In this document: piece by piece, positions 1 to 55,860 of the stretch | Position numbering within the stretch: the stretch's first letter is position 1 | Layout: every line of letters starts with the position of its first letter | Origin: a virus | Taxonomy: Duplodnaviria > Heunggongvirae > Uroviricota > Caudoviricetes | Length of the DNA: 64,000 bases | Virus record (IMG/VR): IMGVR_UViG_3300033146_002139 | Location: 103,707-167,706 of that record | Reading direction: 5' to 3' (one strand) | The notes under the pieces: model-generated | What the model was told of the DNA's origin: nothing | What the model saw: only the letters and a program-made list of their open reading frames with translations | The model's database searches: none | Made by a program: the position numbers and the translations under genes

Positions 1-484
1 AAACACAACTTTCTTTTGAATACAACTGCCCATCCCCATTGATGTCCTTATCTAGTTCGTATTTTTCAACTTTTTCTGCTATATTTTGAAAGCCTTTTAG
101 CTTAGCAACATCTTTTAGAAAATTTTGAAATATCAACCATTCTGTGGATACTTTAACATTCTTAGCTCCGTAAAATCTGTAGGCCTTGTTTTGTTGATTG
201 TAACACCTTGCTATAATGTTTATCCAAATGTTGTAAATTTTTTCGTTCCCTTTTTTATTAGCGTTCCCAATACTTGCAACACCATATATCTTTGGATAGT
301 AAATGTCTTTAACTTCCCCGTTTACGATTTCTCTTATAGAAGCTTTTGTTTTATGTTTCGTTAACAAAAATTCTATTAAAAACTGCCTTTTTTTGTTTTT
401 GCTATCTAGCTCTGTAATTATCTTAAACTTGCCATAGTTATTTGAATTAAATACAGAGCCGTTAGGGATACTTCTTTTTCTCAT
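1..484 (-). CDS. hypothetical protein, partial (N-terminus at 484; continues past window start)
   Basis: The reverse complement from ATG (482-484) reads MRKRSIPNGSVFNSNNYGKFKIITELDSKNKK... and stays open to position 1. This start overlaps the stop of the upstream minus-strand gene (TAATG). The plus-strand ORF 125-364 in the track is probably its shadow. Confidence 0.4.
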   Translation of the reverse strand, partial: MRKRSIPNGSVFNSNNYGKFKIITELDSKNKKRQFLIEFLLTKHKTKASIREIVNGEVKDIYYPKIYGVASIGNANKKGNEKIYNIWINIIARCYNQQNKAYRFYGAKNVKVSTEWLIFQNFLKDVAKLKGFQNIAEKVEKYELDKDINGDGQLYSKESCV

Positions 485-1389
485 TACAACACCATCTCAG
501 TTGATTTTACAATATTTATATTGTATTTCTTTTTAAGGACTTCGTAATCATCGTTGGTTTTTGCCTTATCTATTATAGTAGATGTGCAATCTTCTAAAAT
601 ATAGATTTTAGATGTTATATCAGGTCTTGTTTCGTAGTGCTCTAATATTTGTTTTATAGATTCTATAACACAAAAATCCTTAGCTTCTCCACCAATAATT
701 ATCTTATCGTACTTCTCTAGTTTGTTTAAAAAATCAATATTAACTTGGTTTTTAGGGGAGTATTCCGGCTTTAAAATCCCATACATTTCACTCATTGGGT
801 CTTGTCCTTTTACTAGATATTGTATTGCAGATTTCTTGGCAACACTGTAAAAGTATATCATATTTGTTAATTGGTTTTCTATTGCTGCGCCTTGAGTTCC
901 TTGTAGGCAGTGATATGGCCATATAACTAAAACTTTCTTTCCTAATTTCTCTAGGTTTTCTACATAATCCCTAGAGCCTATAGGATTTATAACAGGCTTC
1001 CACTTCCCATCGTTCAAATCGTCAAGCGTTATTGCTGTCAGAGGTGCAGGATTATCTCCATTCTCATCAACCCACCAGCAAGGATGGAATATTTGAAAAG
1101 GATTGTGAGTGTCAATAGACACCGCTACTCTTGAAATTTTATCCATATTATTATAGATAAATCTAGTAAAATTTTCTACATCTTTATGCGCTCCTGGAAC
1201 ACCAAGGCTACCATTTTCCATAAAATCATTTTGAAAATCTATTCCAATGACAAGTATGTTTTCAGGGTTTTTTGCTGACGGAGACAGATTCTCCTTGTTC
1301 GCTAAAGATAACAAATCACCTTGCACTAAAGGGTTTGTAGTATCTCCAATGCTTGATACATTTACAATTTCTTCATAATTAGTTTTCAT
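484..1389 (-). CDS. isochorismatase-family hydrolase, probable nicotinamidase (PncA-like) with about 50-aa N-terminal extension
   Basis: ILVIGIDFQNDF (Asp), SIDTHNP...FHPCWW (DWHP-like metal site) and GGEAKDFCVIES (catalytic Cys in the G-x-A-x-D-x-CV context) match the Asp-Lys-Cys cysteine-hydrolase pattern. Confidence 0.55.
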   Translation of the reverse strand: MKTNYEEIVNVSSIGDTTNPLVQGDLLSLANKENLSPSAKNPENILVIGIDFQNDFMENGSLGVPGAHKDVENFTRFIYNNMDKISRVAVSIDTHNPFQIFHPCWWVDENGDNPAPLTAITLDDLNDGKWKPVINPIGSRDYVENLEKLGKKVLVIWPYHCLQGTQGAAIENQLTNMIYFYSVAKKSAIQYLVKGQDPMSEMYGILKPEYSPKNQVNIDFLNKLEKYDKIIIGGEAKDFCVIESIKQILEHYETRPDITSKIYILEDCTSTIIDKAKTNDDYEVLKKKYNINIVKSTEMVL

Positions 1390-1672: not shown

Positions 1673-2182
1673 TTATTCTCCAAGAAATATGGTTTTAGCT
1701 ATTATTGTTTTTGGGTCTACAAATGACATACTCTCAACTTCCTTTTTACTTTTCCATTCAGCTTTTGTAACTTCATCGCCCTCTATCATAGTATCTGTGG
1801 ATTTTGATGTAACAAGTATTTTATATATGGTCATTGTGCTATCGCTATTTCCTACATTTATAAAGTACTTAGCGACCTCCCTAATATCCTTTATGTCAAA
1901 TTCCGGAATATTGCACTCTTCTTTCAACTCTTCAATCATGATTTTGTCATCAGGAAGTTGTTTGTCTATGATTCCGGCGGGTATTTCGTATGTTAAGCCC
2001 TCAATACAAGGGCGGTACTGCATAACTAGCAACATTTTTCCATCTTCGTTTACAACCAAAGCACTAACTGCAGAATTAAGGTCAACTTTTTCATAAGTTT
2101 TTTTATTATAACGGTAGGTTTTTACCTTAACAAATCCATCATACACAATCTTTTCACTACTCATCGCCATTAAAACCCTCAC
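1673..2182 (-). CDS. Nudix hydrolase (ADP-ribose pyrophosphatase-like)
   Basis: Nudix-box-like PAGIIDKQLPDDKIMIEELKEECNI (GX5EX7REUXEEXGU pattern). The size (169 aa) and layout resemble NudF/ADPRase. Confidence 0.6.
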   Translation of the reverse strand: MRVLMAMSSEKIVYDGFVKVKTYRYNKKTYEKVDLNSAVSALVVNEDGKMLLVMQYRPCIEGLTYEIPAGIIDKQLPDDKIMIEELKEECNIPEFDIKDIREVAKYFINVGNSDSTMTIYKILVTSKSTDTMIEGDEVTKAEWKSKKEVESMSFVDPKTIIAKTIFLGE

Positions 2183-5399: not shown

Positions 5400-6704
5400 T
5401 TATTTAATTTTTCTTATTGATACTCCAACAGGAAACCTTGGAATACCGTTATCATCTCCGGTTTCAAAATACCTTATAGTGAGCATCTCACCTATAAAAG
5501 ATGCTGCCCTTTCAAAAAGGTCTTTTCTGTAGTTTCTAGCACCTTTTGGTTTGCAGTCAAATTCATATCCTTGCTTCGTGATACATCTCCAAACGACCGT
5601 ACCTATGTCGTTTCCATCTGCCTCTTTATATCCTATTATCTCAAACTCGTCATCTTCAAAATCTTTCTTTTTTAGTAAGTTTTCAGACCTTTTGTCGATT
5701 TCGTAAATGCCTTCCATATTTCTTATTATAGAACCTTCGTACCCTTCAAGGATAAGCTTTTTATGTATCTCGTCAACCTCTTCCCAATTCTGTGCAATAT
5801 AATTAGGAACTATTTCAAGGTATTCGCATTGGTCAACTATCTTTTTTGCTTCATTGTATCTTGTCATAAAAACTTCTGCAGAGACCTCAAATTTATCTAT
5901 TTTACCTTTAGGACATTTGCCTAGATAATCAATCCAAAATGAATCGTACACCATTAATTTTATTTTTAATTGGTCAGCAATTTTATCTGCTGTCATATTC
6001 TTTTCTCTGGCAACAATACTTGTTATCTCTTGGAAAGTAAGCTCGTGAGAATAAAGCTCTCCATCAAGCACTCTGTTTCTTGGTGCAAAATCCTCAACTT
6101 CTCTTTTAATATGGTCAAAAAGCTCAAATACTGTATTCTCTCTTGATTGCATTCTAGCTTTTATTTTTCTTTGTCCATTATTGTCAGGTATTCTTGTAAA
6201 GCTGTTTTTTACAGTACATCTTATCCCGTCTAATTTAGGTTGGACTACAACAGGGAATGTAATTTTTTCTTTTACAGGTTTTTTAGGTGATGTTGACTTG
6301 CCGATTTTTTTAGCAGTCTTTCTTATATCACTTTCTTTCTTTGCCAGCATAGGCAGTATAACTAATCTGTGTTCTGCTTCATAAGCGCTTATAAAATAAC
6401 CTACTTTCTTTTTCTTTTTCCACATTGATAAAGCCTGAGAAATAGCCTGTTCTTCTACTGTAGTCTCATTAGCTTTTCCAATATTTTTGCCGGATTTAAT
6501 AATCTTCCCTTTATCGATTGTTAATTTACCATCTACATAACCTCTATATGTCTTTATGACTATATTATAATTGTCGTTAAATGGATTCGGGTCGTTTATA
6601 TCTGCACCATCTTTAAGTATAGACTCAACTTTGATAGTGTTTTTCTGTATCTTGCCTGTACTAGCTTTTTTATAAAGGGATGGCATTTCTTTTATAATGC
6701 TCAT
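5400..6704 (-). CDS. ATP-dependent DNA ligase (with about 140-aa N-terminal extension)
   Basis: Motif I VVVQPKLDGIRCTV (KxDGxR), EGYEGSIIRNMEGIYE (motif IV) and LLKKKDFEDDEFEIIGY (motif V/KxK), consistent with a nucleotidyltransferase-superfamily ligase. Confidence 0.7.
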   Translation of the reverse strand: MSIIKEMPSLYKKASTGKIQKNTIKVESILKDGADINDPNPFNDNYNIVIKTYRGYVDGKLTIDKGKIIKSGKNIGKANETTVEEQAISQALSMWKKKKKVGYFISAYEAEHRLVILPMLAKKESDIRKTAKKIGKSTSPKKPVKEKITFPVVVQPKLDGIRCTVKNSFTRIPDNNGQRKIKARMQSRENTVFELFDHIKREVEDFAPRNRVLDGELYSHELTFQEITSIVAREKNMTADKIADQLKIKLMVYDSFWIDYLGKCPKGKIDKFEVSAEVFMTRYNEAKKIVDQCEYLEIVPNYIAQNWEEVDEIHKKLILEGYEGSIIRNMEGIYEIDKRSENLLKKKDFEDDEFEIIGYKEADGNDIGTVVWRCITKQGYEFDCKPKGARNYRKDLFERAASFIGEMLTIRYFETGDDNGIPRFPVGVSIRKIK

Positions 6705-10295: not shown

Positions 10296-11477
10296 TTAAA
10301 TCATTGAAATTTTAACCGGGTTAGCCACGAACCCTATATCGGATACAAAATTATCTCCGATTACTTTTCTTAAAATATTTGTTGCTCCGTTCCAGTCTGC
10401 ATTCACTAATTTATTGATACTTGACTGAAATAATCCTCGCTTAATTCTTTTACCTTTATACTTCTTGTGCTTACCTATCTTTTCAAGAGCTAAAGCATCA
10501 CATTTACTGGTATAGCTTTCTTCATTTCTTATCACTTTAATTCCAATTTCTTCTGATTTATACTCTAATTGCTGAATAAATCGCAAATAAGGGATGTTTA
10601 CAAAGTTTTGATTATTAACCTTACCAATGTTAGCATTTTGTTTCCAGCCTTGATTATAGCCAACTACAATATTTTTAATATCATTCTCCAAACAGTAGTT
10701 AATTATATATCTTGAGCTTTTATGCAGGTAATCATTAATCTTGTTGTTCCTTTTTAAAGTTAATCTGTTAATTCTATTAGATAATTGCTTATCGCCTACA
10801 AAACTCTGTAATTTAGCTTTCTTTTTATTGTAGTATTGATTTATGGATTTTAATGGTTTGCCATTACCAATTATAGGTTTTAAACCTGCATTGGTTGAAG
10901 TTGCAAATAAATTATTAACTCCTAAATCAAGACTGATGTATAAATCTTCGTTTAGATTTTCATAGGCTTTTACCTCCTTTTTGTAAACTATTTCAATAAT
11001 ATTATATCCAACTCTAGGAAGTATCCTAACTTGATTTACATTATTTACTTTAGTCTTTAATGGATTTATATTAGATTTTTTAGGAAACAATATAAATCCA
11101 TTTTTAAGTTTAACTTGCTGATTAGTAAAGATAATAATATTTTTACCGTTTTTATCTTTATACTTTGGTATTCTAGGTTTAGCTTTAAACTTCTTTGGAT
11201 TCTTAAAAAAAGCTTTTTCTGCTTTAATAAAAGACTTCCAGTTTTTAAATAAAACTTTAATTATTTGCTGAGATGTTTGAGCAAGTAAAGCTCTGTAATC
11301 GGACTGGTTCTCTTTAGCTAATTGAGTTGTTAAGGTATATTCTGACAATAAGTTACCATTACCTATAAACTCTTGACGAATTAAGTAATTACAGTAGTTG
11401 TATAAATTCTTGGATAAGAAATGTAAGCTATCCATATTTGAATTTTGTTTTACAATATGTCTCTCAACTCTTTGCAT
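10296..11477 (-). CDS. tnpB: TnpB-like protein (IS200/IS605 OrfB family), apparently lacking the RuvC-II Glu and the zinc finger
   Basis: N-terminal OrfB_IS605 region (QRVERHIV...LYNYCNYLIRQ), RuvC-I ISLDLGVNNLFAT and RuvC-III NADWNGATNIL are present. At the RuvC-II position it has NIVVGYNQGW where the paralogues have IIIETLDLK / LYFETLDIK / ISIEDLKIK. The C-terminus has a single Cys instead of CxxC..CxxC. Confidence 0.75.
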   Translation of the reverse strand: MQRVERHIVKQNSNMDSLHFLSKNLYNYCNYLIRQEFIGNGNLLSEYTLTTQLAKENQSDYRALLAQTSQQIIKVLFKNWKSFIKAEKAFFKNPKKFKAKPRIPKYKDKNGKNIIIFTNQQVKLKNGFILFPKKSNINPLKTKVNNVNQVRILPRVGYNIIEIVYKKEVKAYENLNEDLYISLDLGVNNLFATSTNAGLKPIIGNGKPLKSINQYYNKKKAKLQSFVGDKQLSNRINRLTLKRNNKINDYLHKSSRYIINYCLENDIKNIVVGYNQGWKQNANIGKVNNQNFVNIPYLRFIQQLEYKSEEIGIKVIRNEESYTSKCDALALEKIGKHKKYKGKRIKRGLFQSSINKLVNADWNGATNILRKVIGDNFVSDIGFVANPVKISMI

Positions 11478-12070: not shown

Positions 12071-12529
12071 TTATTCATATTTCCTCCCTTCTTTAACAGA
12101 ATTGATTAAAACTTCTATATACTCTCTATCTTCATCTGAAATGTATGATTTTTCGTATTCTCCATACGACCCTTTTTTGCAGACTATCATCCATATTTTA
12201 TCTATCGCTATTTCGTAGTCGTCTGTATTTATATCTTGCTTTTCTGTTTGAGCTGTTGAGATATACTTTTCATCTTTATGGTCGTTGTCAAAATCGTTTT
12301 CAGCATTATGCTTATTTGAATATTTTCTGTACCACTTAGCATAGTCGCTATCTTTTTCAGCGGTTTCGTACTGCCTAAGTGCCTGACCTTTATTACTCAT
12401 TATAAACTCTTTTGCAGCTGCTTCATCAGTATGTATTTGGAAAGTTAAACACGCAGGTATAGCAACAGCGGCTAAAATAGCTACGATAACAGCAATAACC
12501 ATTACTTCGATTAGTGTAAATCCTTTCAT
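12071..12529 (-). CDS. type IV pilin-like protein (prepilin-type N-terminal cleavage/methylation motif)
   Basis: MKGFTLIEVMVIAVIVAILAAVAIPA has a canonical class III signal (G|FTLIE) plus a hydrophobic helix; 152 aa. Confidence 0.55.
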   Translation of the reverse strand: MKGFTLIEVMVIAVIVAILAAVAIPACLTFQIHTDEAAAKEFIMSNKGQALRQYETAEKDSDYAKWYRKYSNKHNAENDFDNDHKDEKYISTAQTEKQDINTDDYEIAIDKIWMIVCKKGSYGEYEKSYISDEDREYIEVLINSVKEGRKYE

Positions 12530-15536: not shown

Positions 15537-16325
15537 CTACTCCACTATTAAATTAGTACCTTTAAGAGCAAAACCCTTAAATTCATCTGTTTGTGCTTTC
15601 TCAATCCATTCATTATCAACATTATCTCCGTAATGGATAAGTAACATTTTACTCTTAATTTTACTAGCCAATTTTTTTAGTCCGTTGTAGTGTGCATGAA
15701 CACCACTTTCAAATGGAGATGTTTCACAATCTTGAATTATTAAGTCAACATCATCATAAAGACCCATAAGCTGATTTGGAGCATGTTGAGAATCGGTAGT
15801 CATCAATACCTTACTATTCCCTGTGTCTACTACTAAACCATAAGAGTCCATATAATTAAAACCGTTTACAATATGAATCATTTGAGCCGGTGTGAATTTT
15901 ACACCATCTATCGTAAAACTATTGTTATCTTTTATAGAATTAGGTTCAAAGTAGGTATGTAGTGTAGCCTCTTTTTCTCCATTTTTCATTTGGTGGCTAG
16001 CTAAACTTCCGAGCCCACCTGATAAAGAATTGCTCCATAATGTTTTCATTACATTGTGATTTGCAAAAAGTTTTATTTTTTCTTTTGTTGGGTCAAAGTA
16101 TGTCATAAAAGCCATATATTCTAACCCTCCAATATGGTCTGCATGAGCGTGGCTAATATAAATCCAATCTATGTCTGATGGTGAAAGTCTATAATCAGCT
16201 AGACTAATTTTAGTATCAAATCCACAATCTATAAGACCTTTAGTCTTATCTGTTTCAACAAGTATTAATGTGTTGTTGAATATTAAAGAGCTCATGTTCC
16301 CTGAGCCTAAAAATGTTAATTTCAT
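15537..16325 (-). CDS. MBL-fold metallo-hydrolase
   Basis: ISHAHADHIGG (HxHxDH motif) plus downstream D and H residues; 262 aa. Confidence 0.7.
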   Translation of the reverse strand: MKLTFLGSGNMSSLIFNNTLILVETDKTKGLIDCGFDTKISLADYRLSPSDIDWIYISHAHADHIGGLEYMAFMTYFDPTKEKIKLFANHNVMKTLWSNSLSGGLGSLASHQMKNGEKEATLHTYFEPNSIKDNNSFTIDGVKFTPAQMIHIVNGFNYMDSYGLVVDTGNSKVLMTTDSQHAPNQLMGLYDDVDLIIQDCETSPFESGVHAHYNGLKKLASKIKSKMLLIHYGDNVDNEWIEKAQTDEFKGFALKGTNLIVE

Positions 16326-18949: not shown

Positions 18950-19144
18950 TTAATTCTCCTTTGCGAATTTATTCAACTCTTTCTTGTATTTAATTATTTC
19001 TTCATTTGTAGCGTGGTATATAGTGGTCATTTTACAATCCCAATCGTCTTGTGTGTAAGTAGAAAAGATACAGTCCTTACAGTTTCCGTCAGGATGAGAA
19101 TGACAATAATCCCTCATTAGTGTTATGTAATCTTTACTTTTCAC
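18950..19144 (-). CDS. small hypothetical protein (His/Cys-containing)
   Basis: 64-aa ORF with CHSHPDGNCKDC. Confidence 0.4.
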   Translation of the reverse strand: MKSKDYITLMRDYCHSHPDGNCKDCIFSTYTQDDWDCKMTTIYHATNEEIIKYKKELNKFAKEN

Positions 19145-19385
19145 CTATTCTCCTATGTTTTAGACCTAGTAGATTTATTTCATCATTTGTCAACATATCT
19201 ATTCCCCAAAATCCACAACCTTTAAATAATGCGTAGTCTATATCTTTTGTTAATAGATATATTTTACTTGCCCTTCTAACATCTTTTGCATCGGCCATAA
19301 ATCCATTTGCCAAAAGAAAACTATATATTTTTCTTGCTGTAAAAGTAATTCTTAACGCTCCTATTGTTTTGCAAAATATATTCAC
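19134..19385 (-). CDS. small hypothetical protein
   Basis: 83-aa ORF overlapping both neighbours by a few nt. Confidence 0.4.
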   Translation of the reverse strand: MNIFCKTIGALRITFTARKIYSFLLANGFMADAKDVRRASKIYLLTKDIDYALFKGCGFWGIDMLTNDEINLLGLKHRRIGEK

Positions 19386-20642
19386 TTAATTCTCCAATTC
19401 TATAAGATATTTTATTGTTGTCTGATTTCCTCTGTAGACAATCATTTCATTATTCTTTAAATCTATTCCTCCATGCGCGAAAACAGAATCATAGTCTCCT
19501 TTATTTTTTAATGTGTTAGCTGAAAGATTATAACAGCTTGAATCGTGTTTATGTATATCCATTTGCTTTCCAGTGTGAACTTTAAATACCGCCATAAATC
19601 CCGTATTATCACTACCACCTGACCAATAAGAACCTCTTAAAGATGTATATCCAAGAGATTTTCTTGCTTTATCTGCAAAGTATATCCCATCACCAAACAT
19701 AGAACCTGTGTAAACTGCAGAAGATGGTCTTATTAAAAGTCCTGTCTTCATTATATTTATAAAGTTCTCATTCCTGGAGCCGTGGAATAACAATGCTGTC
19801 GTTTTATCTTTGGAATCGGCAATGTTTTTATTAAAAACTTTTAATGTAGCTTTATTTGTAACTTCGTATGCCGTTTTAAACTTGTTAGATATTCCGCCAA
19901 GATGTTTTTTAATTTCAACTTCCTGTTTTGGATTGATTGTACTAACAGAAATACCAAGGACATCCAACATTGTTTTGTTGTCTAAAGTTTCTCCGGTTTC
20001 TTCTTCAGCCTCTAGTATCCCTACTTTTGTTGCCATAGAATCAAGATTGTCCTGTTCTTGTATAAGCATTTTTTTTATTTCAGCTACATTTTTTCTTAAA
20101 ATACCTGCCGTTTCTTCTATGAGATGGTCTGATACTCTCCCCATTCTTCGAGGTATTACCTGAAATAGGTCTGTAAGTGTTTCGTTGAAAAAGGTTACTT
20201 CTCTGCCTGTTTTAGCGTTAGAAAATAAGATATTTAGTAGTCTTTGTGCTTCGTCAACTTGCGACTGAGTAACAGACTCGGCAGATACAGTATAATTCGC
20301 TGCCACAGACTTGTTGGTATAATTCATTAATTGGATTATCAATTTTTCTATAACGGCGTTAGGAATTGGAGTATATCCAGATGATTTCGAGACAACCTTA
20401 ATCGAACGTCTTTCTGTTTCATCTTTATATCCTTTTGCTATTTTAGACTTATATACTTTATCCCATTTGTACATAGGGTAAATCTTCTCAGCCATACTAG
20501 CCCCATATCTTCCATACTCGGCTCTAAATCTGTCTCCGGTGATTTCTGTCATTCTATAAATCTTGTTGTTGTTTCTTCCCCCTGTTCCGTTTACCATTAT
20601 TAGCTCTACTGCTTGTCCATTCTCCACGTTTCCTGCTAACAA
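19386..20642 (-). CDS. PARP-like ADP-ribosyltransferase (WGR domain + helical region + H-Y-E catalytic domain)
   Basis: WGR-like N-terminus (KIYRMTEITGDRFRAEYGRYGAS...KWDKVYKSKIAKGYKDET). Catalytic LLFHGSRNENFINIMKTGLL (His-Gly-Ser), GSMFGDGIYFADKARKS (Tyr) and NNEMIVYRGNQ (Glu) match the PARP1-type H-Y-E signature. Confidence 0.75.
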   Translation of the reverse strand: MLAGNVENGQAVELIMVNGTGGRNNNKIYRMTEITGDRFRAEYGRYGASMAEKIYPMYKWDKVYKSKIAKGYKDETERRSIKVVSKSSGYTPIPNAVIEKLIIQLMNYTNKSVAANYTVSAESVTQSQVDEAQRLLNILFSNAKTGREVTFFNETLTDLFQVIPRRMGRVSDHLIEETAGILRKNVAEIKKMLIQEQDNLDSMATKVGILEAEEETGETLDNKTMLDVLGISVSTINPKQEVEIKKHLGGISNKFKTAYEVTNKATLKVFNKNIADSKDKTTALLFHGSRNENFINIMKTGLLIRPSSAVYTGSMFGDGIYFADKARKSLGYTSLRGSYWSGGSDNTGFMAVFKVHTGKQMDIHKHDSSCYNLSANTLKNKGDYDSVFAHGGIDLKNNEMIVYRGNQTTIKYLIELEN

Positions 20643-20753
20643 AAATTTACATAAATATAAACTTTTGAGTTTTACTGCTTCATCGTACTCGATTTCAATA
20701 TGATTCTCTCTACTCTCGTTGATTTTAATACTCCGCAGTCGTTAATTTCCTTA

Positions 20754-21896
20754 TTAGCCTAAGGTATTATATTTTACACAATTCTTAATATTGATACTTG
20801 CATTCAAATCTCTGTCCATTGAAAAACCACATTTGCAATTATATGTTCTATCTGTGAGCTTTAAGTCTCTTTTTATACTTCCACATTTAGAACAAGTTTT
20901 ACTACTTGGAAACCATTTGTCTATTATTCTTAGCTCAATATTATATTTTTTGCATTGTTGAGTAAGAAACTCTCTAAAATAATAAAACATTTGGTCTTTA
21001 ATTGCTTTTGATAAATGCTTATTTTTCAACATACTTTTAATTTTCAAATCTTCAATACTAATAAATTTTGGGTTTAGACTAACCAGTGAATTTACTACAA
21101 ATCTTACACATTCGACTCTAATATTGCTTAAGCGATAATGTAATCTTTGAACTCTTAATTTGTTTTTATATATGTTTCTGCTAGACTCTCCTTTTGTCTT
21201 AGTTTTAAATTTACGACTTAATTGTCGCTGTGATTTTTTTAATTTCTTTTCTAATCTTTTTATTTTCTTAGTTTTGTTTATATTTTTAAAGAATTCACCC
21301 TCACTTGTAACCGCAAATTCTTTAATTCCTAAATCGATTCCGATAGCTTTAGTTTTCTTTTTTGGATTCATCTTTTTGGATTCTTCCTCAACTAAAACAC
21401 TTACAAAGTATCTATCAGCTATTCGAGATACAGTTCCGGACTTAACTTTAGAATTTAAGGGAATATATCCAAATTCTTTTAATCTTACAAATCCTAATGT
21501 GGGGATTTTAATTCTATGTCTTTCTAAAGTCCAATCATTTTTATTGTTCTTAGGTAGGTACATCTTGACTTTGCTATCTTTCTTTTTAAATCTTGGAAAT
21601 TTAGACTGTTTTTTAAAAAACTTCTTAAATGCCTTTTCTCCATTGAAAATAGACTGCTTTACAGATTTACTACTAACTTCTTTTATCCAGGAAAATTCCT
21701 TGTTAAATAATAGAAAATTATTATTAAGCCACTTGCTGAAGCTCATTGCAGATACAAATCTTTGTTCTTTTTCGTAAATCTCTTTATTGTATTTCAAGTA
21801 AAAATTATAAATAAATCTACAAGTCCCAAGAGTTTTATGCACTTTTTCTTTCTGCTTATCGTTTAGCTTTATTTCTATTTTATAGGATTTTAGCAT
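20754..21896 (-). CDS. tnpB: TnpB (OrfB, RuvC-like RNA-guided nuclease family)
   Basis: OrfB N-terminal domain, RuvC-I IGIDLGIKEFAVT, RuvC-II ISIEDLKIKSM, CSKCGS...CKCGF zinc finger, and RuvC-III DRDLNASINI. Confidence 0.8.
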   Translation of the reverse strand: MLKSYKIEIKLNDKQKEKVHKTLGTCRFIYNFYLKYNKEIYEKEQRFVSAMSFSKWLNNNFLLFNKEFSWIKEVSSKSVKQSIFNGEKAFKKFFKKQSKFPRFKKKDSKVKMYLPKNNKNDWTLERHRIKIPTLGFVRLKEFGYIPLNSKVKSGTVSRIADRYFVSVLVEEESKKMNPKKKTKAIGIDLGIKEFAVTSEGEFFKNINKTKKIKRLEKKLKKSQRQLSRKFKTKTKGESSRNIYKNKLRVQRLHYRLSNIRVECVRFVVNSLVSLNPKFISIEDLKIKSMLKNKHLSKAIKDQMFYYFREFLTQQCKKYNIELRIIDKWFPSSKTCSKCGSIKRDLKLTDRTYNCKCGFSMDRDLNASINIKNCVKYNTLG

Positions 21897-22307
21897 CTAA
21901 AACTCTTTTGAAATTAAGTCAAGACTTTTAGTAATTTTAAATGCTGTATTATTCTCTGCGTTTTCGGCTTTTACTTTATACTTTGAGATAAAAGCTCCTT
22001 TCTCTAGTATGCCTATTTTTAGATAACCATCTTTATATTCTCCAAAAGCAGTACAATTATCATCTCCTACATTGATACTAAAGCCTGAAAATGTAAAAAC
22101 ATCTTCAGAAATTCTTGTTACAAGGTTCTTGTGTAGCATTGCATAGCCATGTACTCCTCCCATGTAGTCAAAATACTGAGACTCTGAATAATATCTAGTA
22201 CCACCGTCTGTTATTTTGACTGGAATTAAAGAACGGTTTTTATGCCAAGTCCTTAAAGTCTTGGATGTGACACCTATTTTTTTTGCAAATTTACCTGATG
22301 AAAACAT
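21897..22307 (-). CDS. MerR-type HTH protein resembling the N-terminal DNA-binding domain of IS607 TnpA but without a serine-recombinase catalytic domain
   Basis: KFAKKIGVTSKTLRTWHKNRSLIPVKITDGGTRYY (MerR-like HTH). The rest (136 aa in total) has no S-recombinase motif. It abuts tnpB (stop to start 21897/21896). Confidence 0.5.
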   Translation of the reverse strand: MFSSGKFAKKIGVTSKTLRTWHKNRSLIPVKITDGGTRYYSESQYFDYMGGVHGYAMLHKNLVTRISEDVFTFSGFSINVGDDNCTAFGEYKDGYLKIGILEKGAFISKYKVKAENAENNTAFKITKSLDLISKEF

Positions 22308-22392: not shown

Positions 22393-24669
22393 TTATCTTT
22401 TGACGACTTCTCCTGGCTGATTTTTTAAGAAGTTGGAATTTTCATCGTTCTTCTTAACGGCAATGCCGGATTGGTCCTCGTACATTTCACGGGTTAATCG
22501 TTGGTCTTTCCCTTCCGTAATTATCCCTCTGTCTCTTATAAACTCTGTATACATAGCTCCTTTATAGCCTGATAATTTGTTTTTTGCATATTTTGTTTTT
22601 ACTGCAACCTTTTCTGCATCAATACCTATATCACTATTGAAGCATAATAGCCATACTAGATTTGCATTATAAGCAAATTTTCCTGTTTCCATAATATCAT
22701 CTAATGTAGGTTCTTTATACCTTCCATCGTGACTACTTTTCTTTCTTAATTCTACCGTAACAAATAATGGGATATTATAGGTATCTACTAAGTTTTTAAC
22801 TAGATTTGCTCTAAGTATATTTTGAAGTCTCAAATCCATATGTCCTACATCAAGATTAAAAACTCCATCTATAAGAACCATAACATCTTTACTTTTATAA
22901 CTTTCAATAGTCTTTTCTAGGTGGTATCTTAAAATGTCGTAGCTCACGATAGTTTCTATGTCAAATATCAACAATCTATCATTTAGCCATTCTTGTAATT
23001 TATTTGTCGCATATGTGTATATACCTCGAAGAGACATCATTTCTATTCTTGTTTCTGCATTAACACCATCATCAGCTTTTATTTCAAACTCTATATTAGC
23101 AACATCAGACAAATGTCTAGGTTTTTGTATTTGGTTTATAGTCAAATTTCCTTGACTTAAAATTGCTACAATTCTGTTTATCATTATGTCGAAATTATCA
23201 TCAAGTGAATATATTATTTGGTAGAGCTTTTTGTTTGATATCATTGCATCTACGAACACATTTAAAGAAATCTGTGTGTTGTGGGTAAGTATAAAATCTT
23301 TAGTAGCATAAAGATGGTCTTTTGAATCAACAGATATGCAAGTAGCATAATCATCAAAAGCATATTCTATTGATTTAATATAATTATATTCTCCCTTTTT
23401 TGCAGGTTTTACTTTTTCAGCTTTTCTTTTTAACTTAAAAGGATTTATGTCAGAGCTGAATTTTACATACACTCTGTAATTTATCCTAGTTTCCTTGTAA
23501 GAGCCATCTGCTAATTTATATCCTCCCATTCTTTGAGAGAAAGATGCTCTAGCCCCTAACGACCTAGCAATCTGAATTACATTGTCTTTTAGTTTTTCGG
23601 AAGTAGTAGAATACTCCGTAACTCTGCTACTCTCCACATAAGAACCGTCTGTATCAAACAACCCTCTTAGCATTTCTAGTCTATCATCTATTGTTGACAT
23701 TAGGTAATCCGACGGTATGAATTTTTCAAAACTTTTTTTATTTTTTAATCCATAGCTATCCAATACTCTTCTGAAGTCCTGTATTCCAGAGACGAAGTAA
23801 TCGCAATTATCTCCCTTTCTCTTTTTTAAAACCCCTTTGTGTTTTTTAAGTAGCATATTAAAGTCGTCAACCATCTCCTTGTCTAAAGATGCAAATCCAA
23901 AAAAATTCCCTGAATAACAACCATCTCCAAGAAACATCCCTAGTAAATAAGGGTGCATTTTTAATTCTTTTTTTGCATACTGAACAGGAGCTATTCTTTT
24001 TATTGCGTGTCTTTTTGCCCCGTTATTGCGGTGTAATGTTGCAACGATTTCTTTAGTAGTTTTTATAGAACCAGTCTTTTCTCCTTTTCTATTTTTATTG
24101 GTATAGGTGTACCATCTATGTTCTAAATCAGCAAAAGTAATAGACCCATCAGACATAGTAACTTTGTAAAGAGGTCTCTTATTTTGAGGGAAAACATCTA
24201 AAACTTTGGTAGGTTTTCCGTCTGACCCTATAACAAAATCTCCGACTTTTAAGTCCCCATTTTTTACATATCCATCTGGAGTTGGAATGAGTTCATTGTC
24301 CCAAAGCGCCTTTCCGATATTACTAGCCCCTCCTATAATGTATAGCCCATTCTGAACCCCATCCAATAAACCTTCTGTCTGACTAAATGTTCTCAGTTTA
24401 TGCCCTATTAAATCTTCTCTTGCATAATCCCTTGTTATCTTATCTGATAATCTTTTTTTCAAATCAGGGACTTCGTATTCGGTATAAGTACCTGCTACTG
24501 AATTTGAAAACAGGTTTGATACAAATTCTACATCGTTATCGCTAAACTCACTTACCTTTGTTCCGGTTTTCTTTTCTATAAAATCAACAAACTCTGATAC
24601 GAAAAACATCCTGTTTGTTTCTGGGATATCCTGCTTAGGAGTGTTGTTGAATATTTCAGCATGATTCAT
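22393..24669 (-). CDS. DnaB-like replicative helicase interrupted by an intein
   Basis: The Walker A GGASNIGK | TQISL is split by a 344-aa insert. The C-extein has Walker B VMVLIDGVFNLD and a RecA-fold C-terminal domain. ATGA-coupled to the primase. Confidence 0.8.
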   Translation of the reverse strand: MNHAEIFNNTPKQDIPETNRMFFVSEFVDFIEKKTGTKVSEFSDNDVEFVSNLFSNSVAGTYTEYEVPDLKKRLSDKITRDYAREDLIGHKLRTFSQTEGLLDGVQNGLYIIGGASNIGKALWDNELIPTPDGYVKNGDLKVGDFVIGSDGKPTKVLDVFPQNKRPLYKVTMSDGSITFADLEHRWYTYTNKNRKGEKTGSIKTTKEIVATLHRNNGAKRHAIKRIAPVQYAKKELKMHPYLLGMFLGDGCYSGNFFGFASLDKEMVDDFNMLLKKHKGVLKKRKGDNCDYFVSGIQDFRRVLDSYGLKNKKSFEKFIPSDYLMSTIDDRLEMLRGLFDTDGSYVESSRVTEYSTTSEKLKDNVIQIARSLGARASFSQRMGGYKLADGSYKETRINYRVYVKFSSDINPFKLKRKAEKVKPAKKGEYNYIKSIEYAFDDYATCISVDSKDHLYATKDFILTHNTQISLNVFVDAMISNKKLYQIIYSLDDNFDIMINRIVAILSQGNLTINQIQKPRHLSDVANIEFEIKADDGVNAETRIEMMSLRGIYTYATNKLQEWLNDRLLIFDIETIVSYDILRYHLEKTIESYKSKDVMVLIDGVFNLDVGHMDLRLQNILRANLVKNLVDTYNIPLFVTVELRKKSSHDGRYKEPTLDDIMETGKFAYNANLVWLLCFNSDIGIDAEKVAVKTKYAKNKLSGYKGAMYTEFIRDRGIITEGKDQRLTREMYEDQSGIAVKKNDENSNFLKNQPGEVVKR
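23278..24309 (-). mobile_element. class 3 intein with LAGLIDADG homing endonuclease (within the helicase gene)
   Basis: Ala1 start (ALWDNELIPTPDG), block B GSITFADLEHRW (T..H..W), LAGLIDADG motifs LLGMFLGDG and LRGLFDTDGS, block F DDYATCISV (Cys), block G FILTHN followed by Thr+1. Together these give the WCT triplet. Confidence 0.65.
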
Positions 24670-35539: not shown

Positions 35540-35935
35540 ATGATTGAATTTAAAGATAAGTACGGTTCTGTAATAACAACTAATCAAGGAAATATAACTA
35601 TTAAAGACTATAAGAGAGATTCTATAGTAGAGATAATTGGAACAAAATCCATGTTTAAGGTATCGCAAGAAACTATTGAGGATATCTTACTTCAAATAAA
35701 AAAAGAAGAGGATAAAGATGGGGATTTCCTTTTATCTACAATGCCAGGTGTTTTAGTACAAGTGCTCCAGGAAGTCAAAAAAGGACAAAATATTGACAAA
35801 AAAGTTCAGCACATCGAAAGAAGAGACTACTTAACTTATTTAGATAAAAAAAGCGGCTTGTCAGAATCCGAAGCAAAAGAATTCGACTATCTAAATTGGT
35901 GGGTTCCAAATAAAAGATGGGAACATTACGAATAG
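35540..35935 (+). CDS. hypothetical protein
   Basis: 131 aa; ATGA-type coupling. Confidence 0.5.
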   Translation: MIEFKDKYGSVITTNQGNITIKDYKRDSIVEIIGTKSMFKVSQETIEDILLQIKKEEDKDGDFLLSTMPGVLVQVLQEVKKGQNIDKKVQHIERRDYLTYLDKKSGLSESEAKEFDYLNWWVPNKRWEHYE

Positions 35936-36504
35936 GAGCTACGATGAATATAATAATGATAGAAGATACTGTCTCCGGATACAAACACAGAACAATGGAA
36001 AATGCAAGTGCAGACGTTACTATAGCTATAGCAGCTGATTTCAATACCGCAGGAGAAAAGCTAACAAAAAAATCTGTTAAAGAACAGGGAAAGCTCTTTA
36101 TTCCATTAAAATTTGAACCTCTAAGAGCGGAGGAACAGGCTAACTATGTTATAAGCAAGATAAAGAACTATGAAGAAACTCTAAAAGATAGGGTTAAAAG
36201 TTTAAATATTGCTGGAAATGGAATATACACAATCGCAAAGCACAACCATGTTACTCAATTTCATATTGATGCTTATTTGTACGACCTGCTTAAAATAATA
36301 CTTCCCAAAACAAAGGTAGTACTAGTTCGTTCAGGAGGACAATCCGGAGTTGACGAAGCAGGAGTTAAAGCATCGTCACTACTTGGGGTAAGTTCATTAG
36401 TATTGGCACCAAAAGGGTGGAAATTTAGAGACTTGCTTAACAGAGATTTTAGTGACAAATTGGCTTTTAAGCATAGGTTTATGCTTTATGTAGGAGAACA
36501 GTAG
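35917..36504 (+). CDS. hypothetical protein, possible SLOG/DprA-like Rossmann domain
   Basis: VVLVRSGGQSGVDEAGVKAS resembles the DprA/Smf-type G-x-x-G-x-D-x-A Rossmann-like motif. Confidence 0.45.
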   Translation: MGTLRIGATMNIIMIEDTVSGYKHRTMENASADVTIAIAADFNTAGEKLTKKSVKEQGKLFIPLKFEPLRAEEQANYVISKIKNYEETLKDRVKSLNIAGNGIYTIAKHNHVTQFHIDAYLYDLLKIILPKTKVVLVRSGGQSGVDEAGVKASSLLGVSSLVLAPKGWKFRDLLNRDFSDKLAFKHRFMLYVGEQ

Positions 36505-38429: not shown

Positions 38430-38786
38430 TTGATTACTACTTTTAAGGGCTATGAGATGAAAAAATTATACAGATACTCGTATCAAATCGACCACTCTAA
38501 CTTTTTCACTTTAGCTGTTGATGTGAAATTTATAAAAGAAGAATATTTTGTTTTAAAAGAAACAGAAAAATCATACATTATAAACTATGGATTCAGACAG
38601 AAGGTTGTAAGAAAAAAAGGAATAAATCTATTTGCTTTTGATACAGAAGAAAAAGCATTTTACAATTTTACCAATAGAAAAAAAAGTCAGCAAGAACATT
38701 TAAAAGCTAAACTTGCAGTAATAAATACTGTTGTTGAAAAGATAGATAAAGAGGGTTTTGATGGACAAAACAAATTTAGGAAATAG
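38430..38786 (+). CDS. hypothetical protein
   Basis: Preceded by TTGACA-17-TACATT at 38402-38430; an alternative start at ATG 38456 (MKKLYRY). Confidence 0.45.
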   Translation: MITTFKGYEMKKLYRYSYQIDHSNFFTLAVDVKFIKEEYFVLKETEKSYIINYGFRQKVVRKKGINLFAFDTEEKAFYNFTNRKKSQQEHLKAKLAVINTVVEKIDKEGFDGQNKFRK

Positions 38787-39576
38787 AATAAAAGACTATG
38801 AGGCGATAGAAAAAAAGAAGCTTTTTTCGCAAATTCCAATAGTAATTAGATTGGATGGTAAAAATTTTTCAAGATTTACAAAAGGAATGGAAAGACCATT
38901 TGACTTAAAGTTTAAAGAGATGATGCAAAAAACAACTAAATTCTTAGTTGACTATACAAATGCGAAAATAGGATACACACAGTCAGATGAAATATCGTTA
39001 GTGTTGTATTCTGATAACCACAAAAGACAAGTTTTTTTAGACGGAAAGAAGGATAAAATAAATTCTTTAATTGCTTCAAAATGCTCTGTGTTTTTCAATT
39101 CTTTACTTGAGGATTATTTTCCAGAAAGAAAAAGCTTGTTACCTATATTTGATTGTAGAAGTTTTAATGTTCCAACACTAGAAGAAGGGGTAAATGCAAT
39201 TCTATGGAGAGAATTAGATGCTACAAAAAACAGCATATCTATGTTAGCTCGACATCACTTTTCTCATAAACATCTACATGGGGTGCATACAGGAGATATG
39301 CTTGATATGCTTTACAGTATTGGAATCAATTGGAATGAACTAGAGACAAGCCTTAAAAGAGGGACTTATTACCAAAGAGTAAAAAGGCTAACCAAATTCA
39401 CTACATCTGAAATAGAAAAACTTCCCCCTAACCACGATGCTCTAACAAATCCAAACTTAATGATAGAAAGAAGTCTTGTCGAGAAGCTTGAGATGCCGAT
39501 AATAACAAAAGTTACAAACCAAACTAATGTGTTTTTTTACGGAGCTTTACCCAAAATAGAACTAAAGGATGTATAG
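38758..39576 (+). CDS. Thg1-like protein (tRNA-His guanylyltransferase family 3'-5' nucleotidyltransferase)
   Basis: IPIVIRLDGKNFSRF and KIGYTQSDEISLVL (the conserved SDE), plus a C-terminal NSISMLARHHFS region. Confidence 0.75.
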   Translation: MMDKTNLGNRIKDYEAIEKKKLFSQIPIVIRLDGKNFSRFTKGMERPFDLKFKEMMQKTTKFLVDYTNAKIGYTQSDEISLVLYSDNHKRQVFLDGKKDKINSLIASKCSVFFNSLLEDYFPERKSLLPIFDCRSFNVPTLEEGVNAILWRELDATKNSISMLARHHFSHKHLHGVHTGDMLDMLYSIGINWNELETSLKRGTYYQRVKRLTKFTTSEIEKLPPNHDALTNPNLMIERSLVEKLEMPIITKVTNQTNVFFYGALPKIELKDV

Positions 39577-45936: not shown

Positions 45937-46356
45937 ATGAGATTTACTAAAGAAAATATAATAGATTTAAAAGAGAGTGAGGTGTTTGTTTTTGGTGCGA
46001 ATGAAAAAGGTATTCATGGGGCTGGAGCTGCTAGATTAGCATTACAATGGGGTGCTGTTTATGGAGAAGGCTATGGAATGAAAGGAATGACATTTGCAAT
46101 TCCAACTAAAGATAAAAATATTCAAACACTACCATTGCCTGATATAAAAATATACATTGATGCTTTTATACTTTTCGCTGCAACTCGTCCAGAATATACA
46201 TTTTTAGTAACAAAAATTGGAACAGGACTAGCGGGTCTTTTCATTAAAGACATAGCTCCATTATTCAAAGATGCAACACTATACAACAACATAATCCTAC
46301 CTGAAGAATTTTGGGATATATTATCCGAACAAATGGAGACAACCGATGAAACTTAG
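45937..46356 (+). CDS. hypothetical protein, possible Rossmann-like nucleotide-processing (SLOG/LOG/macro-like) domain
   Basis: VFVFGANEKGIHGAGAARLALQWG glycine-rich motif; 139 aa. Confidence 0.5.
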   Translation: MRFTKENIIDLKESEVFVFGANEKGIHGAGAARLALQWGAVYGEGYGMKGMTFAIPTKDKNIQTLPLPDIKIYIDAFILFAATRPEYTFLVTKIGTGLAGLFIKDIAPLFKDATLYNNIILPEEFWDILSEQMETTDET

Positions 46357-49523: not shown

Positions 49524-49652
49524 ATGTCAAGAACTGAAACAATAATAATTAGACTAACAAAAGAAGAGAAGTCTAATATTGAAAGAAAAGCTAAAGAGCA
49601 AGGATTGTCGGTCTCATCTTACCTAAGAAGCTTAGGGATGAGAGATAAATAA
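49524..49652 (+). CDS. ribbon-helix-helix (MobC/CopG-like) mini-protein coupled to tnpB
   Basis: Translated by hand: MSRTETIIIRLTKEEKSNIERKAKEQGLSVSSYLRSLGMRDK; AAGGAG RBS; the stop TAA overlaps the tnpB ATG. Confidence 0.6.
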   Translation: MSRTETIIIRLTKEEKSNIERKAKEQGLSVSSYLRSLGMRDK

Positions 49653-50746
49653 TGATTAAAAAGCTTAACAAAGCATATAAATTTAGATTATATCCAAATG
49701 CGACACAGCAAGAGTATTTTGCAAAGACATTTGGAAGTGCTAGGTTTATCTACAATAAAATGTTAAGCGATAAAATTGATTATTATAAGCTAGAGAAGAA
49801 AACCTTAAACAATACTCCTGCTCAATATAAAAAAGAGTTTGAGTGGTTGAAAGAAGTGGATTCATTAGCTTTAGCAAATAGTCAAATGCAATTAAAAACT
49901 GCATTTATGAATTTTTTCAAAAGAAAAGGTGTTGGATTTCCTAATTTCAAAAGTAGAAGAAATAAAAAGTCATATAAAACTAATAATCTTAATGGTACAA
50001 TTAAAGTTGAATTAAATAATGTAAAACTGCCAAAGATAGGTTTTGTTAAAGCAGTAACACATCGTAGAGTTGAAGGTAAAATAAAAAGTGCAACAATATC
50101 TCAAACTCCAACTGGCAAATATTTTGTATCAATTTTAGTTGAATATGAAAAAGAGATAAAGGAAGTAAAAAGTAATAAAGTAATAGGATTAGATTTTTCA
50201 ATGAAAGATTTATATGTAAGTAGTGATAATGAGAAAGCCAATCAGCATCATTATTTTAGAAAATCTTTAGATAAAATCAAATTTGCTCAACGAAGTTTAT
50301 CAAGAAAAGTAAAAGGAAGTAGTAATCGTAACAAACAAAGACTTAGATTAGCTAAAGTTCACGAGAAAGTTAGCAACCAAAGAAACGACTTTTTGCATAA
50401 AACATCTACTTATTTATCAAAGAAATACGATGCTATAATAATTGAAACTCTTGATTTGAAAGAGATGAGCAAACACTTGAAGCTTGGAAAATCAGTACAC
50501 GATAATTCTTGGGCTACATTTGCAGCATTATTAAAATACAAATCAGAGCAATCAGGAAAGCAGTTAGTTCAAATTGATAAGTGGTTTCCAAGTAGCAAAA
50601 AATGTTCTAATTGTGGAAATGTAAAAGAGAAGTTAGAGTTGTCAGAACGAACATACAATTGTGGAAGCTGTAATCTTAGTATTGATAGGGATTACAATGC
50701 TTCATTAAATATTAAAATGGCTGGGACAGTCAAGTTAGCTTGGTAA
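49652..50746 (+). CDS. tnpB: TnpB (OrfB, RuvC-like RNA-guided nuclease family)
   Basis: RuvC-I IGLDFSMKDLYVSS, RuvC-II AIIIETLDLKEM, zinc finger CSNCGN...CGSCN, RuvC-III DRDYNASLNI. Confidence 0.8.
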   Translation: MIKKLNKAYKFRLYPNATQQEYFAKTFGSARFIYNKMLSDKIDYYKLEKKTLNNTPAQYKKEFEWLKEVDSLALANSQMQLKTAFMNFFKRKGVGFPNFKSRRNKKSYKTNNLNGTIKVELNNVKLPKIGFVKAVTHRRVEGKIKSATISQTPTGKYFVSILVEYEKEIKEVKSNKVIGLDFSMKDLYVSSDNEKANQHHYFRKSLDKIKFAQRSLSRKVKGSSNRNKQRLRLAKVHEKVSNQRNDFLHKTSTYLSKKYDAIIIETLDLKEMSKHLKLGKSVHDNSWATFAALLKYKSEQSGKQLVQIDKWFPSSKKCSNCGNVKEKLELSERTYNCGSCNLSIDRDYNASLNIKMAGTVKLAW

Positions 50747-51185: not shown

Positions 51186-51314
51186 ATGAAACGAACTGAA
51201 ACAATAATAATTAGGTTAACAAAAGAAGAAAAAGCTAATATTGAAAGAAAAGCTAAAGAGCAAGGTTTGTCTTTATCGTCTTATTTAAGAAGTTTAGGGA
51301 TGAAAGATAAATAG
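51186..51314 (+). CDS. ribbon-helix-helix mini-protein coupled to tnpB (paralogue of the 49524 copy)
   Basis: MKRTETIIIRLTKEEKANIERKAKEQGLSLSSYLRSLGMKDK. A TTGACT promoter-like element lies at 51131. The stop TAG overlaps the GTG start of tnpB. Confidence 0.6.
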   Translation: MKRTETIIIRLTKEEKANIERKAKEQGLSLSSYLRSLGMKDK

Positions 51315-55772: not shown

Positions 55773-55781
55773 TAATCATTT

Positions 55782-55860
55782 GGGGATGGATTGGTTTCGA
55801 TTGGATGTAAAGCTTACAAGAGCAAATCTCAAGACAGCGGTTCGAATCCGCTCATCTCCA
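55782..55860 (+). tRNA. 79-nt tRNA-like / tmRNA tRNA-like-domain-like element (perfect acceptor + T-arm, non-canonical D/anticodon region)
   Basis: GGGGATG...AGCGG-TTCGAAT-CCGCT-CATCTCC-A gives a 7-bp acceptor stem and a canonical T-arm. The 5' end GGGGAUGGAUUGGUUUCGAUUGG resembles the tmRNA 5' end GGGGCUGAUUCUGGAUUCGACGGG. I could not find a 5-7-5 anticodon arm. Confidence 0.4.

Follow-up and report, generated by a model that had tools for sequence, protein, structure and literature searches.

The stretch of DNA analysed here, 64,000 nucleotides of the IMG/VR virus record IMGVR_UViG_3300033146_002139 and referred to at its full length as the window, carries on its minus strand an uninterrupted open reading frame (ORF) at positions 19386..20642. 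Its 418-amino-acid product is predicted to be a poly(ADP-ribose) polymerase (PARP) in which a WGR domain, a helical domain (HD) and a catalytic ADP-ribosyltransferase (ART) domain follow each other, and its collinearity with the relatives extends over the entire length. A first-pass annotation of the sequence had described a minus-strand protein of this length, and both the protein and all the peptides quoted from it are present exactly as claimed. The start codon is ambiguous: translation may begin at the TTG at 20642 or at a GTG at 20627, the latter giving 413 amino acids and fitting the public gene call for an identical protein (P0001), which is likewise 413 amino acids long; were translation to start at the ATG at 20597, the first conserved beta-strand would be lost. 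The gene, its domains and its active-site residues, whose codons were checked, lie as follows.

19386..20642, minus strand: PARP gene, TTG start, predicted WGR-HD-ART layout (PF00644, PHROG 23333, AlphaFold2 model, Foldseek)
20409..20615, minus strand: WGR domain, residues ~10-78, with the motifs NNNKIY, Y43-G44-R45 (the 'YGR' variant of WGR) and KGYKD
19881..20366, minus strand: HD, PARP_reg-like, residues ~93-254, with conserved IPRxM and EQxxLD
19392..19880, minus strand: ART (PARP catalytic) domain, residues 255-417, PF00644 match
19782..19784, minus strand: catalytic His287 (FHGSR), aligned to WHGSR of PARP1/PARP2
19680..19682, minus strand: stacking Tyr321 (GIYFAD), aligned to GIYFAD...KSANY of PARP1/PARP2
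19647-19661, minus strand: K328, S329 and Y332, near Tyr321
19446..19448, minus strand: catalytic Glu399 (NNEMIVY), aligned to YNEYIVY of PARP1/PARP2

The catalytic domain is recognized by the Pfam model PF00644 (PARP) over residues 254-417 with an E-value of 2.5e-22 and 79.8 bits (cutoff 26.7), and the same model matches all 34 of the relatives, 42-51% identical to the query, that make up our family alignment. When the protein was compared by phmmer to the sequences in the PDB, PARP2 and PARP1 came out as the best matches, with LLFHGSR, GIYFAD and NEMIVY aligned to LLWHGSR, GIYFAD and NEYIVY of PARP2/PARP1. Furthermore, LLFHGSRNENFINIMKTGLLIRPSSAVYTGSMFGDGIYFADKARKSLGY aligns without gaps to the His-Gly-Ser, donor-loop and GIYFAD..KS..Y segments of these two enzymes, and the donor loop is as long as theirs (residues 282-334 aligned without a gap). 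H287, G288, S289, Y321, K328, S329, Y332 and E399 are invariant in the alignment of the 34 relatives, and M315 is nearly so. We take H287, Y321 and E399 to be the equivalents of H862, Y896 and E988 of PARP1; G288, K328, S329 and Y332 correspond to Gly863, K903, S904 and Y907.

Because these residues are invariant across the 34 relatives, both the His-Tyr-Glu (H-Y-E) triad and the nicotinamide pocket are intact and under selection, and a chance match to the PARP motifs can, on the alignments, be set aside. The predicted structure likewise displays an ART fold with what looks like a PARP1/2-type NAD pocket, and it matches PARP catalytic domains at E-values of 1e-15 to 3e-19. The three signatures that the first-pass annotation had assigned to a PARP1-type triad are therefore borne out by Pfam, by the alignment to PARP1/PARP2 and by the model.

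The N-terminal part of the protein had been read as WGR-like, and here the evidence is of two kinds. The Pfam model for this domain, PF05406, gives no match on the 418-amino-acid protein, even at E<=1, but it is matched by 19 of the 34 close relatives (44-50% identity, best E-value 2.7e-09), and positions 17-78 of the family profile align to the WGR domain of PARP2, the two having NNNK[YF]Y and [WY]GR[VI]G in common. N26, K27, Y29, G44, R45, W60, K70, G71 and Y72 are invariant in this region of the family, such that the Gly-Arg pair of the WGR motif is always present and is preceded by an aromatic residue. The AlphaFold2 model, which was built on the family alignment (pLDDT 84.8, pTM 0.81), predicts a four-strand sheet with a helix at residues 11-69, then a helical bundle at 96-254 (helices 96-116, 126-141, 149-162, 183-215 and 238-254), and then the ART domain. 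A Foldseek search with this model placed WGR-HD-ART chains at the top of the PDB matches, namely those of PARP2 (7aeo, 6x0l) and PARP1 (4dqy, 7s6m), all four of them complexes with DNA breaks, with E-values of 3e-19 to 1e-17. WGR-containing chains scored better, and gave alignments approximately 100 columns longer, than chains that consist of the catalytic fragment only. At the level of the family and of the predicted structure, the WGR domain thus appears to be real, even though Pfam is silent on this particular sequence.

The first-pass annotation described two domains only and overlooked the helical regulatory domain that is predicted to lie between the WGR and ART domains. Pfam is of little help here too, since PF02877 (PARP_reg) has no match on the protein. 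However, the alignment of the family profile continues without a break through the HD into the ART domain, starting from position 85 (PARP2 residue 239), and with the PARP1 catalytic fragment the continuous alignment begins at position 119 (fragment residue 40). By sequence and model, the architecture is WGR-HD-ART, which is that of a minimal clade-1 PARP and the core of PARP2/PARP3 and of the bacterial PARPs. In bacterial PARPs, Tyr is the commonest residue at the first position of the WGR motif ('YGR'), and the helical domain is invisible to Pfam (PMC5966428).

What the enzyme would make is a separate question. It had been proposed that an H-Y-E triad implies a real transferase that potentially forms poly(ADP-ribose) (PAR), and not a mono-transferase or a pseudo-enzyme, but chain formation does not follow from the triad alone: human PARP3 and PARP4 carry H-Y-E and yet are mono-transferases, and the PARP4 chains among our PDB matches are indeed named 'mono-ADP-ribosyltransferase'. 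H-Y-E is required for PAR synthesis but is not sufficient for it. The donor loop of PARP1/2 length is only a weak hint toward chain synthesis, and sequence and model leave it undecided whether the product is a polymer or a single unit. At the position of Y986 of PARP1 the protein has Asn397, both in the family alignment and in the alignment of the profile to the PDB chains, and a partner like HPF1 is not expected in bacteria.

The gene is by no means alone. PHROG 23333 matches the protein over its full length (E-value 1.3e-57; positions 8-383 of the 383 in the profile, residues 14-417 of the protein), and by tblastn full-length homologues turn up in 16 GenBank phage records, including Cellulophaga phages phi4:1 and phi17:2 and Xanthomonas phage XacN1, in which the gene is annotated as 'poly (ADP-ribose) polymerase'. 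Relatives are present in at least 293 IMG/VR viral contigs of up to 425 kb. A large protein database holds more than 100 full-length relatives with 43-51% identity, several of them named poly [ADP-ribose] polymerase or WGR domain-containing protein; the closest of all (44-51%) are metagenomic proteins, and nothing above 51% identity was found in the databases searched. On the cellular side, relatives occur in 116 species-level genomes, mostly of Saprospiraceae, Cytophagales and Microscillaceae (Bacteroidota), and in some Firmicutes. One further record, JBBACR010000001.1 (L123), is a 425,361-bp contig of a 'Candidatus Pacearchaeota archaeon' metagenome-assembled genome, which equals the viral contig IMGVR_UViG_3300035208_004923 (L051) in its length and in its PARP coordinates; it is probably a huge phage that was binned into an archaeal genome. 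Purifying selection is indicated by the conservation seen over hundreds of homologues from phages and Bacteroidota.

Phage PARPs of this kind have been described before, and the novelty that the first-pass annotation implied is overstated. H-Y-E PARP genes were reported by Perina et al. in 2014 in Cellulophaga phage phi4:1 and Aeromonas phage Aeh1 (PMC4245714), Iyer et al. found PARPs in jumbo phages (PMC7824862), and PART/PARP ranks among the most frequent viral ART families in the survey by Iyer et al. of 2022 (PMC9503650). The present gene is a divergent addition to this published and widespread family, and its locus departs in nothing from what the published surveys predict. In the literature, we came across no biochemical or genetic study of a phage PARP; the PARPs with documented in vitro activity are the bacterial ones of Herpetosiphon and Clostridioides difficile only (PMC8120803, PMC5966428).

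A comparison with these and other systems shows where the protein stands. The phage PARPs of phi4:1, phi17:2 (gp031), XacN1 (BBA65562.1), Klebsiella phage FBKp34 and the uncultured huge phage LR756500 are collinear with it over 97% of the query at 25-39% identity, the best match from a cultured or GenBank phage being 32-39% identical. The PARPs of Bacteroidota (Cytophagales/Saprospiraceae), 'Clade 1.1' of Garcia-Saura et al. 2018, are closer, with 38-45% full-length identity. They have WGR and PARP_cat, a helical domain missed by Pfam and Tyr as the first residue of the WGR motif (PMC5966428), and our protein shares all of these traits. The PARPs of Herpetosiphon aurantiacus and C. difficile CD160, which we compared by description, have the WGR/regulatory/catalytic layout and H-Y-E in common with it and show by experiment that PAR synthesis stimulated by DNA is not confined to eukaryotes (PMC8120803, PMC5966428). 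They belong to clades 2.2 and 2.3, however, have a PARP_reg domain that Pfam detects, and are partnered by a functional PARG, while the window has no PARG. Human PARP2/PARP1 and PARP3 have the same WGR motifs (NNNK[YF]Y, [WY]GR), donor-loop length, H-Y-E and G/S/Y/K pocket, yet overall identity is only ~19-20%, and zinc fingers, BRCT domain and basic N-terminal tail are missing here.

The source of the window (G+C 32.6%) is very likely a phage, as proposed. We base this on its gene content, which is what one would expect in the part of a large phage genome that holds replication, recombination and auxiliary genes. For replication and DNA handling, there are a DnaG-type primase, an intein-bearing helicase-like ORF, a single-stranded DNA-binding protein (SSB), an ATP-dependent DNA ligase and C5 and Dam-type methylases; for recombination, a Rad52-type annealase, NinB/Orf and two PD-(D/E)XK nucleases, one of them an exonuclease 0.8 kb downstream of the PARP gene. 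Counter-defence and auxiliary functions are represented by the anti-Pycsar protein Apyc1, MazG, Thg1 and RtcB, and lysis by an SLT transglycosylase and an endolysin-type amidase. The rest includes HNH endonucleases, an A1S_2505 'phage non-structural protein' and many families known only from PHROG. No virion genes were found within the 64-kb window, a megablast search with 7 kb around the PARP gene against 50,697 phage records gave no match, leaving the element with no close sequenced relative, tblastn with the primase gave weak and partial hits only, a tRNA scan of the window found none, and a scan for promoters and terminators around the PARP gene gave counts equal to the shuffled expectation. 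The block of genes on the same strand as PARP includes a DnaB-like helicase, the primase, the PD-(D/E)XK exonuclease, two DNA methylases, SSB and the ligase, of which two are placed here:

5400-6704, same strand block as PARP: ATP-dependent DNA ligase
22393-24669, minus strand: helicase-like ORF, 758 amino acids, with a LAGLIDADG intein-like insert at residues ~120-470

No Pfam helicase family is above threshold for the latter ORF, which looks like a replicative helicase from its sequence and from its adjacency to the primase.

Between this helicase-like ORF and PARP lies what looks like an inserted IS607-like unit. It consists of a TnpB/IS605-OrfB gene directly upstream of PARP (20754-21896, minus strand), a 136-amino-acid MerR-type helix-turn-helix ORF upstream of tnpB (21897-22307, minus strand), which matches transposase PHROGs at its N-terminus only, and a RAGATH-18 RNA (20672-20739; RF03064, 57.4 bits) between the TnpB stop and the PARP start codon, ending ~30 nt upstream of the latter. 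The TnpA of this unit is possibly truncated. We considered whether PARP is cargo of the adjoining TnpB, but this is ruled out, as TnpB does not recur in other PARP loci (3 lineages only). All in all, the 64 kb hold four TnpB genes (OrfB_IS605 / Cas12f-like TNB), the other three being at 10296-11477 (minus strand), 49652-50746 and 51314-52432 (both plus strand and adjoining each other), a number that is unusually high for a phage-like element.

Several further features of the window deserve mention. The Apyc1 homologue (15537-16325, minus strand; PF23023, 68 bits, cutoff 50) has a metallo-beta-lactamase fold, and Apyc1 is also found ~5 kb from PARP in two other loci (L002 and L003). On the plus strand there are a Thg1-like tRNA-His guanylyltransferase (38758-39576, 104.6 bits), MazG (57847-58266), the A1S_2505-family protein (45937-46356; NF049995, 131.5 bits) and a circularly permuted YpsA-type SLOG protein (35917-36504; PF12694, 27.7 bits); SLOG domains bind or process nucleotide and ADP-ribose-derived ligands (PMC9503650). 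The minus strand carries the RtcB ligase (61378-62577, 371.9 bits) and, in the phage early region, a 152-amino-acid ORF (12071-12529) with a prepilin-type N-terminal methylation motif (PF07963, 22.5 bits; PHROG 'pilin'). Finally, a match to the Rfam tmRNA model at 55782-55863 (plus strand; 82 nt, 54.2 bits, cutoff 47) spans model positions 1-374 but holds the tRNA-like domain only, that is, the acceptor stem GGGGAUG...CAUCUCCA, the T-arm and a 3' end UCA, and has 21 nt where tmRNA has a ~312-nt mRNA and pseudoknot region. It is not called by ARAGORN, its single-sequence fold is unexceptional (z -1.5), it overlaps a predicted 95-amino-acid ORF (55780-56067), and it is absent from the 164 loci that were fetched; it may be a phage mini-tmRNA or a tRNA-like decoy.

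To place the gene in a wider context, we called the ORFs of 84 phage loci, the window and 83 fetched ones, and clustered the neighbours of PARP; the loci fall into 54 lineages (<90% PARP identity) and 24 deep clades (<60%). The recurrent neighbours of phage PARPs include ATP-dependent DNA ligase, RNA ligases of the Rnl1 and Rnl2 types, PNKP, RlaP, a nucleotidyltransferase of the CCA/poly(A) polymerase type and a kinase-GIY-YIG protein. As a raw count, at least one gene for a ligase, PNKP, RlaP or CCA-adding enzyme is found within 8 kb of PARP in 12 of the 24 deep clades. In phi17:2, the gene order is CCA/poly(A) polymerase, PARP, a hypothetical protein, DNA ligase and C5 methylase, an arrangement of ligase and CCA enzyme that the window lacks. 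The association of PARP with a repair and ligation neighbourhood is suggestive. In the largest phage clade (~20 IMG/VR lineages; for instance L032 9844-10818 and L059 10427-11053), PARP is followed by a 324-amino-acid protein that has no Pfam match and whose C-terminal half by eye resembles peptidyl-tRNA hydrolase 2, and then by a 208-amino-acid protein with two H-x-[ST] motifs that by eye looks 2H phosphoesterase-like; both genes are located inside a block with DNA ligase, Rnl1, Rnl2 and RlaP.

Cellular copies keep different company. Directly after PARP, 33 of the 77 cellular loci encode a small protein (~85-100 amino acids). It is characterized by the motif TTTLEVKxxLRxxGYxAxQxxVS (in its longer form TTTLEVKxxLRxxGYxAxQxxVSxxMD), has no Pfam family, gives only weak winged-helix hints, and apparently has not been described so far. 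A variant of ~290 amino acids with the same N-terminus plus a WGR domain (PF05406, 26.6 bits) is present in 11 further cellular loci, and a hidden Markov model (HMM) of the small protein finds the partner directly beside PARP in 11 of the 54 phage lineages as well. Examples, in locus coordinates, are:

L085, 9231-9647: small partner protein
L097, 9255-9518: small partner protein
L090, 9254-10198: small partner protein
L004, 9206-9688: small partner protein
L051, 7422-7961: small partner protein (these and others)

This HMM has no match in any six-frame fragment of the window (best E-value 0.09). The 83-amino-acid ORF directly downstream of our PARP gene (19134-19385) was tried as a candidate, since TFTARKIYSFLLANGF is similar by eye, but the HMM does not match it, nor does Pfam, PHROG or NCBIfam. 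In 8 Firmicutes loci (e.g., L163 7524-7958), the gene immediately upstream of PARP codes for a 144-amino-acid macrodomain protein (PF01661, 33 bits), a pairing of writer and eraser that neither the phage loci nor the window showed. Thus, while cellular copies usually come with a small winged-helix-like, a winged-helix plus WGR, or a macrodomain partner, the window has none that can be detected.

What might a phage do with such an enzyme? By analogy with PARP1-3 and with the DNA-dependent Herpetosiphon enzyme, the C. difficile PARP being a further precedent (PMC5966428, PMC4245714), we think, with somewhat more confidence than doubt, that it is an ADP-ribosyltransferase activated by nucleic-acid breaks that acts in the replication, recombination and repair programme of the phage. 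At rest, the helical domain would block the NAD+ site. The WGR domain would then bind a break in a nucleic acid, for instance a 5'-phosphorylated nick or end, arising from phage replication or recombination or from attack by host nucleases, and this binding would destabilize the HD and switch on the transfer of ADP-ribose from NAD+. Targets could be the enzyme itself, proteins nearby and possibly the nucleic-acid end, and the ADP-ribose might mark or shield the break until the end-processing and ligation enzymes of the phage act on it.

A number of observations weigh against this proposal. Activity is known only from two distant bacterial PARPs, neither of them a member of the Cytophagales-type clade that is closest to our protein. 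The H-Y-E triad is shared with the mono-transferases PARP3 and PARP4, and Asn397 stands in place of Y986 of PARP1. The neighbourhood association is in part the synteny of a single clade, which contributes 40 of the 84 loci, its raw counts come with no background expectation, and the nearest ligase in the window is 13 kb away from PARP. The TnpB/RAGATH-18 element so close to the PARP start may alter expression of the gene. Furthermore, PARG, macrodomain, ARH and NADAR were not found in the 64-kb window (Pfam, ORFs of at least 60-80 amino acids), and they are not among the recurrent neighbours in the 84 phage loci; with no eraser in either, a reversible signalling cycle is not evident.

The alternative that survives best, even if we regard it as rather unlikely, is a modifier for host takeover that would ADP-ribosylate host RNA polymerase or translation factors like Alt, ModA and ModB of phage T4, but with chains, the WGR domain serving as a DNA tether. 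This is the function that Iyer et al. proposed for jumbo-phage PARPs (PMC7824862), and phage ARTs are mostly host-targeting (PMC9503650). The T4 enzymes, too, are NAD+-dependent ADP-ribosyltransferases of a phage; they belong to the R-S-E, cholera-toxin-like clade, have no WGR or HD, and are mono-transferases that are packaged in the head or act as early takeover factors (PMC8120803, PMC9503650). The putatively autoinhibitory WGR-HD module is kept across the family, which argues for an enzyme gated by a ligand rather than a constitutive one. In addition, the neighbours of PARP are genes of repair, ligation and replication, not head-packaging or immediate-early genes, and there is no fusion to MuF or portal.

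A second alternative takes the nucleic-acid end itself as the substrate. ADP-ribose on the terminal phosphates of DNA or RNA, where PARP1-3 place it in vitro, could protect these ends from host exonucleases, or be part of an end-healing pathway together with PNKP, ligase, RlaP and CCA enzymes. PARPs are established to modify DNA and RNA in vitro (PMC8385414), and Rnl1/Rnl2, PNKP, RlaP, CCA/poly(A) polymerase and DNA ligase do recur beside PARP in several deep clades. However, this support is purely contextual, and gene blocks of this kind are a general feature of large phages, as 'auxiliary' regions; in the window, RtcB and Thg1 are 20-40 kb from PARP. We consider a function as end modifier unlikely.

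The first-pass annotation also saw an NAD theme in the window, on account of two genes at its left end:

484-1389, minus strand: nicotinamidase-like protein, 301 amino acids (best PDB relatives all nicotinamidases)
1673-2182, minus strand: Nudix protein (PF00293, 29.6 bits, cutoff 21.1)

As statements of homology, both calls hold, by PDB relatives and motifs. The first protein has no Pfam match and reaches only 42 bits against a cutoff of 174 with NF008623 (PncA), but its best PDB matches (7.3e-07) are all nicotinamidases, to which its IDFQNDF, WPYHC, VKGQD and DFCV align at the Asp, metal-binding, Lys and Cys motifs; it has an N-terminal extension and an extra internal insert of ~50 residues. 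The second has ADP-ribose pyrophosphatases (1v8i, 6e-06) and NUDT14/NUDT5 as best PDB matches, and scores 20 bits against a cutoff of 169 with the NudE equivalog. The pair could process nicotinamide and ADP-ribose, both of which are products of NAD+ cleavage. Spatially, the theme is loose, as the two genes lie 17-19 kb from PARP and neither recurs near it in the 84 phage loci, and a functional link to PARP is conjecture.

The pair also enters into the idea of a weapon against the NAD+ pool, or of a counter-defence, in which break-triggered hyperactivation of PARP would burn host NAD+ while the nicotinamidase-like and ADP-ribose-pyrophosphatase-like enzymes clear the products. This might cripple the NAD+-dependent ligase of the host, the phage having an ATP-dependent one, exclude competitors, or interfere with NAD-based immunity. 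The presence of Apyc1 in the window fits this idea, as does an NAD synthase 3 kb upstream in the locus of one homologue; no NAMPT was found in the window. Yet phages generally protect NAD+ rather than deplete it, and with the distance of the two genes and their failure to recur, we hold this scenario, in all of these uses, to be quite improbable. That the gene is an inactive relic is highly improbable, even though the TnpB/RAGATH-18 element adjoins its 5' end and the WGR domain of this copy stays under Pfam detection, since the frame is full-length, the structure is predicted with confidence, and the relatives show no variation at the catalytic and NAD-pocket residues, all of which are intact here; on account of these active-site residues we rejected the idea of a pseudo-enzyme.

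Of the PARPs of bacteria and their viruses, two bacterial ones have been assayed and none from a phage. Leads can be taken from the family as a whole, namely its abundance in large phages, the ligation and end-repair neighbourhood, and the contrast between eraser-free phage loci and partner-bearing cellular copies. The cultured Cellulophaga phages that carry the same gene offer a tractable system in which to test them. More speculatively, and we put this forward as a tentative idea only, the phage WGR-HD-PARPs might be the sensor arm of a widespread viral 'break-response' module that works together with enzymes by which the phage itself heals and seals ends (ATP-dependent DNA ligase, Rnl1/Rnl2 RNA ligases, PNKP, RlaP and CCA-adding enzyme) and, in many lineages, also with the small winged-helix-like partner beside PARP. 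If this were true, such a module, which would do without a dedicated eraser, would be the counterpart in prokaryotic viruses, and possibly the evolutionary source, of the PARP-ligase repair axis of eukaryotes.

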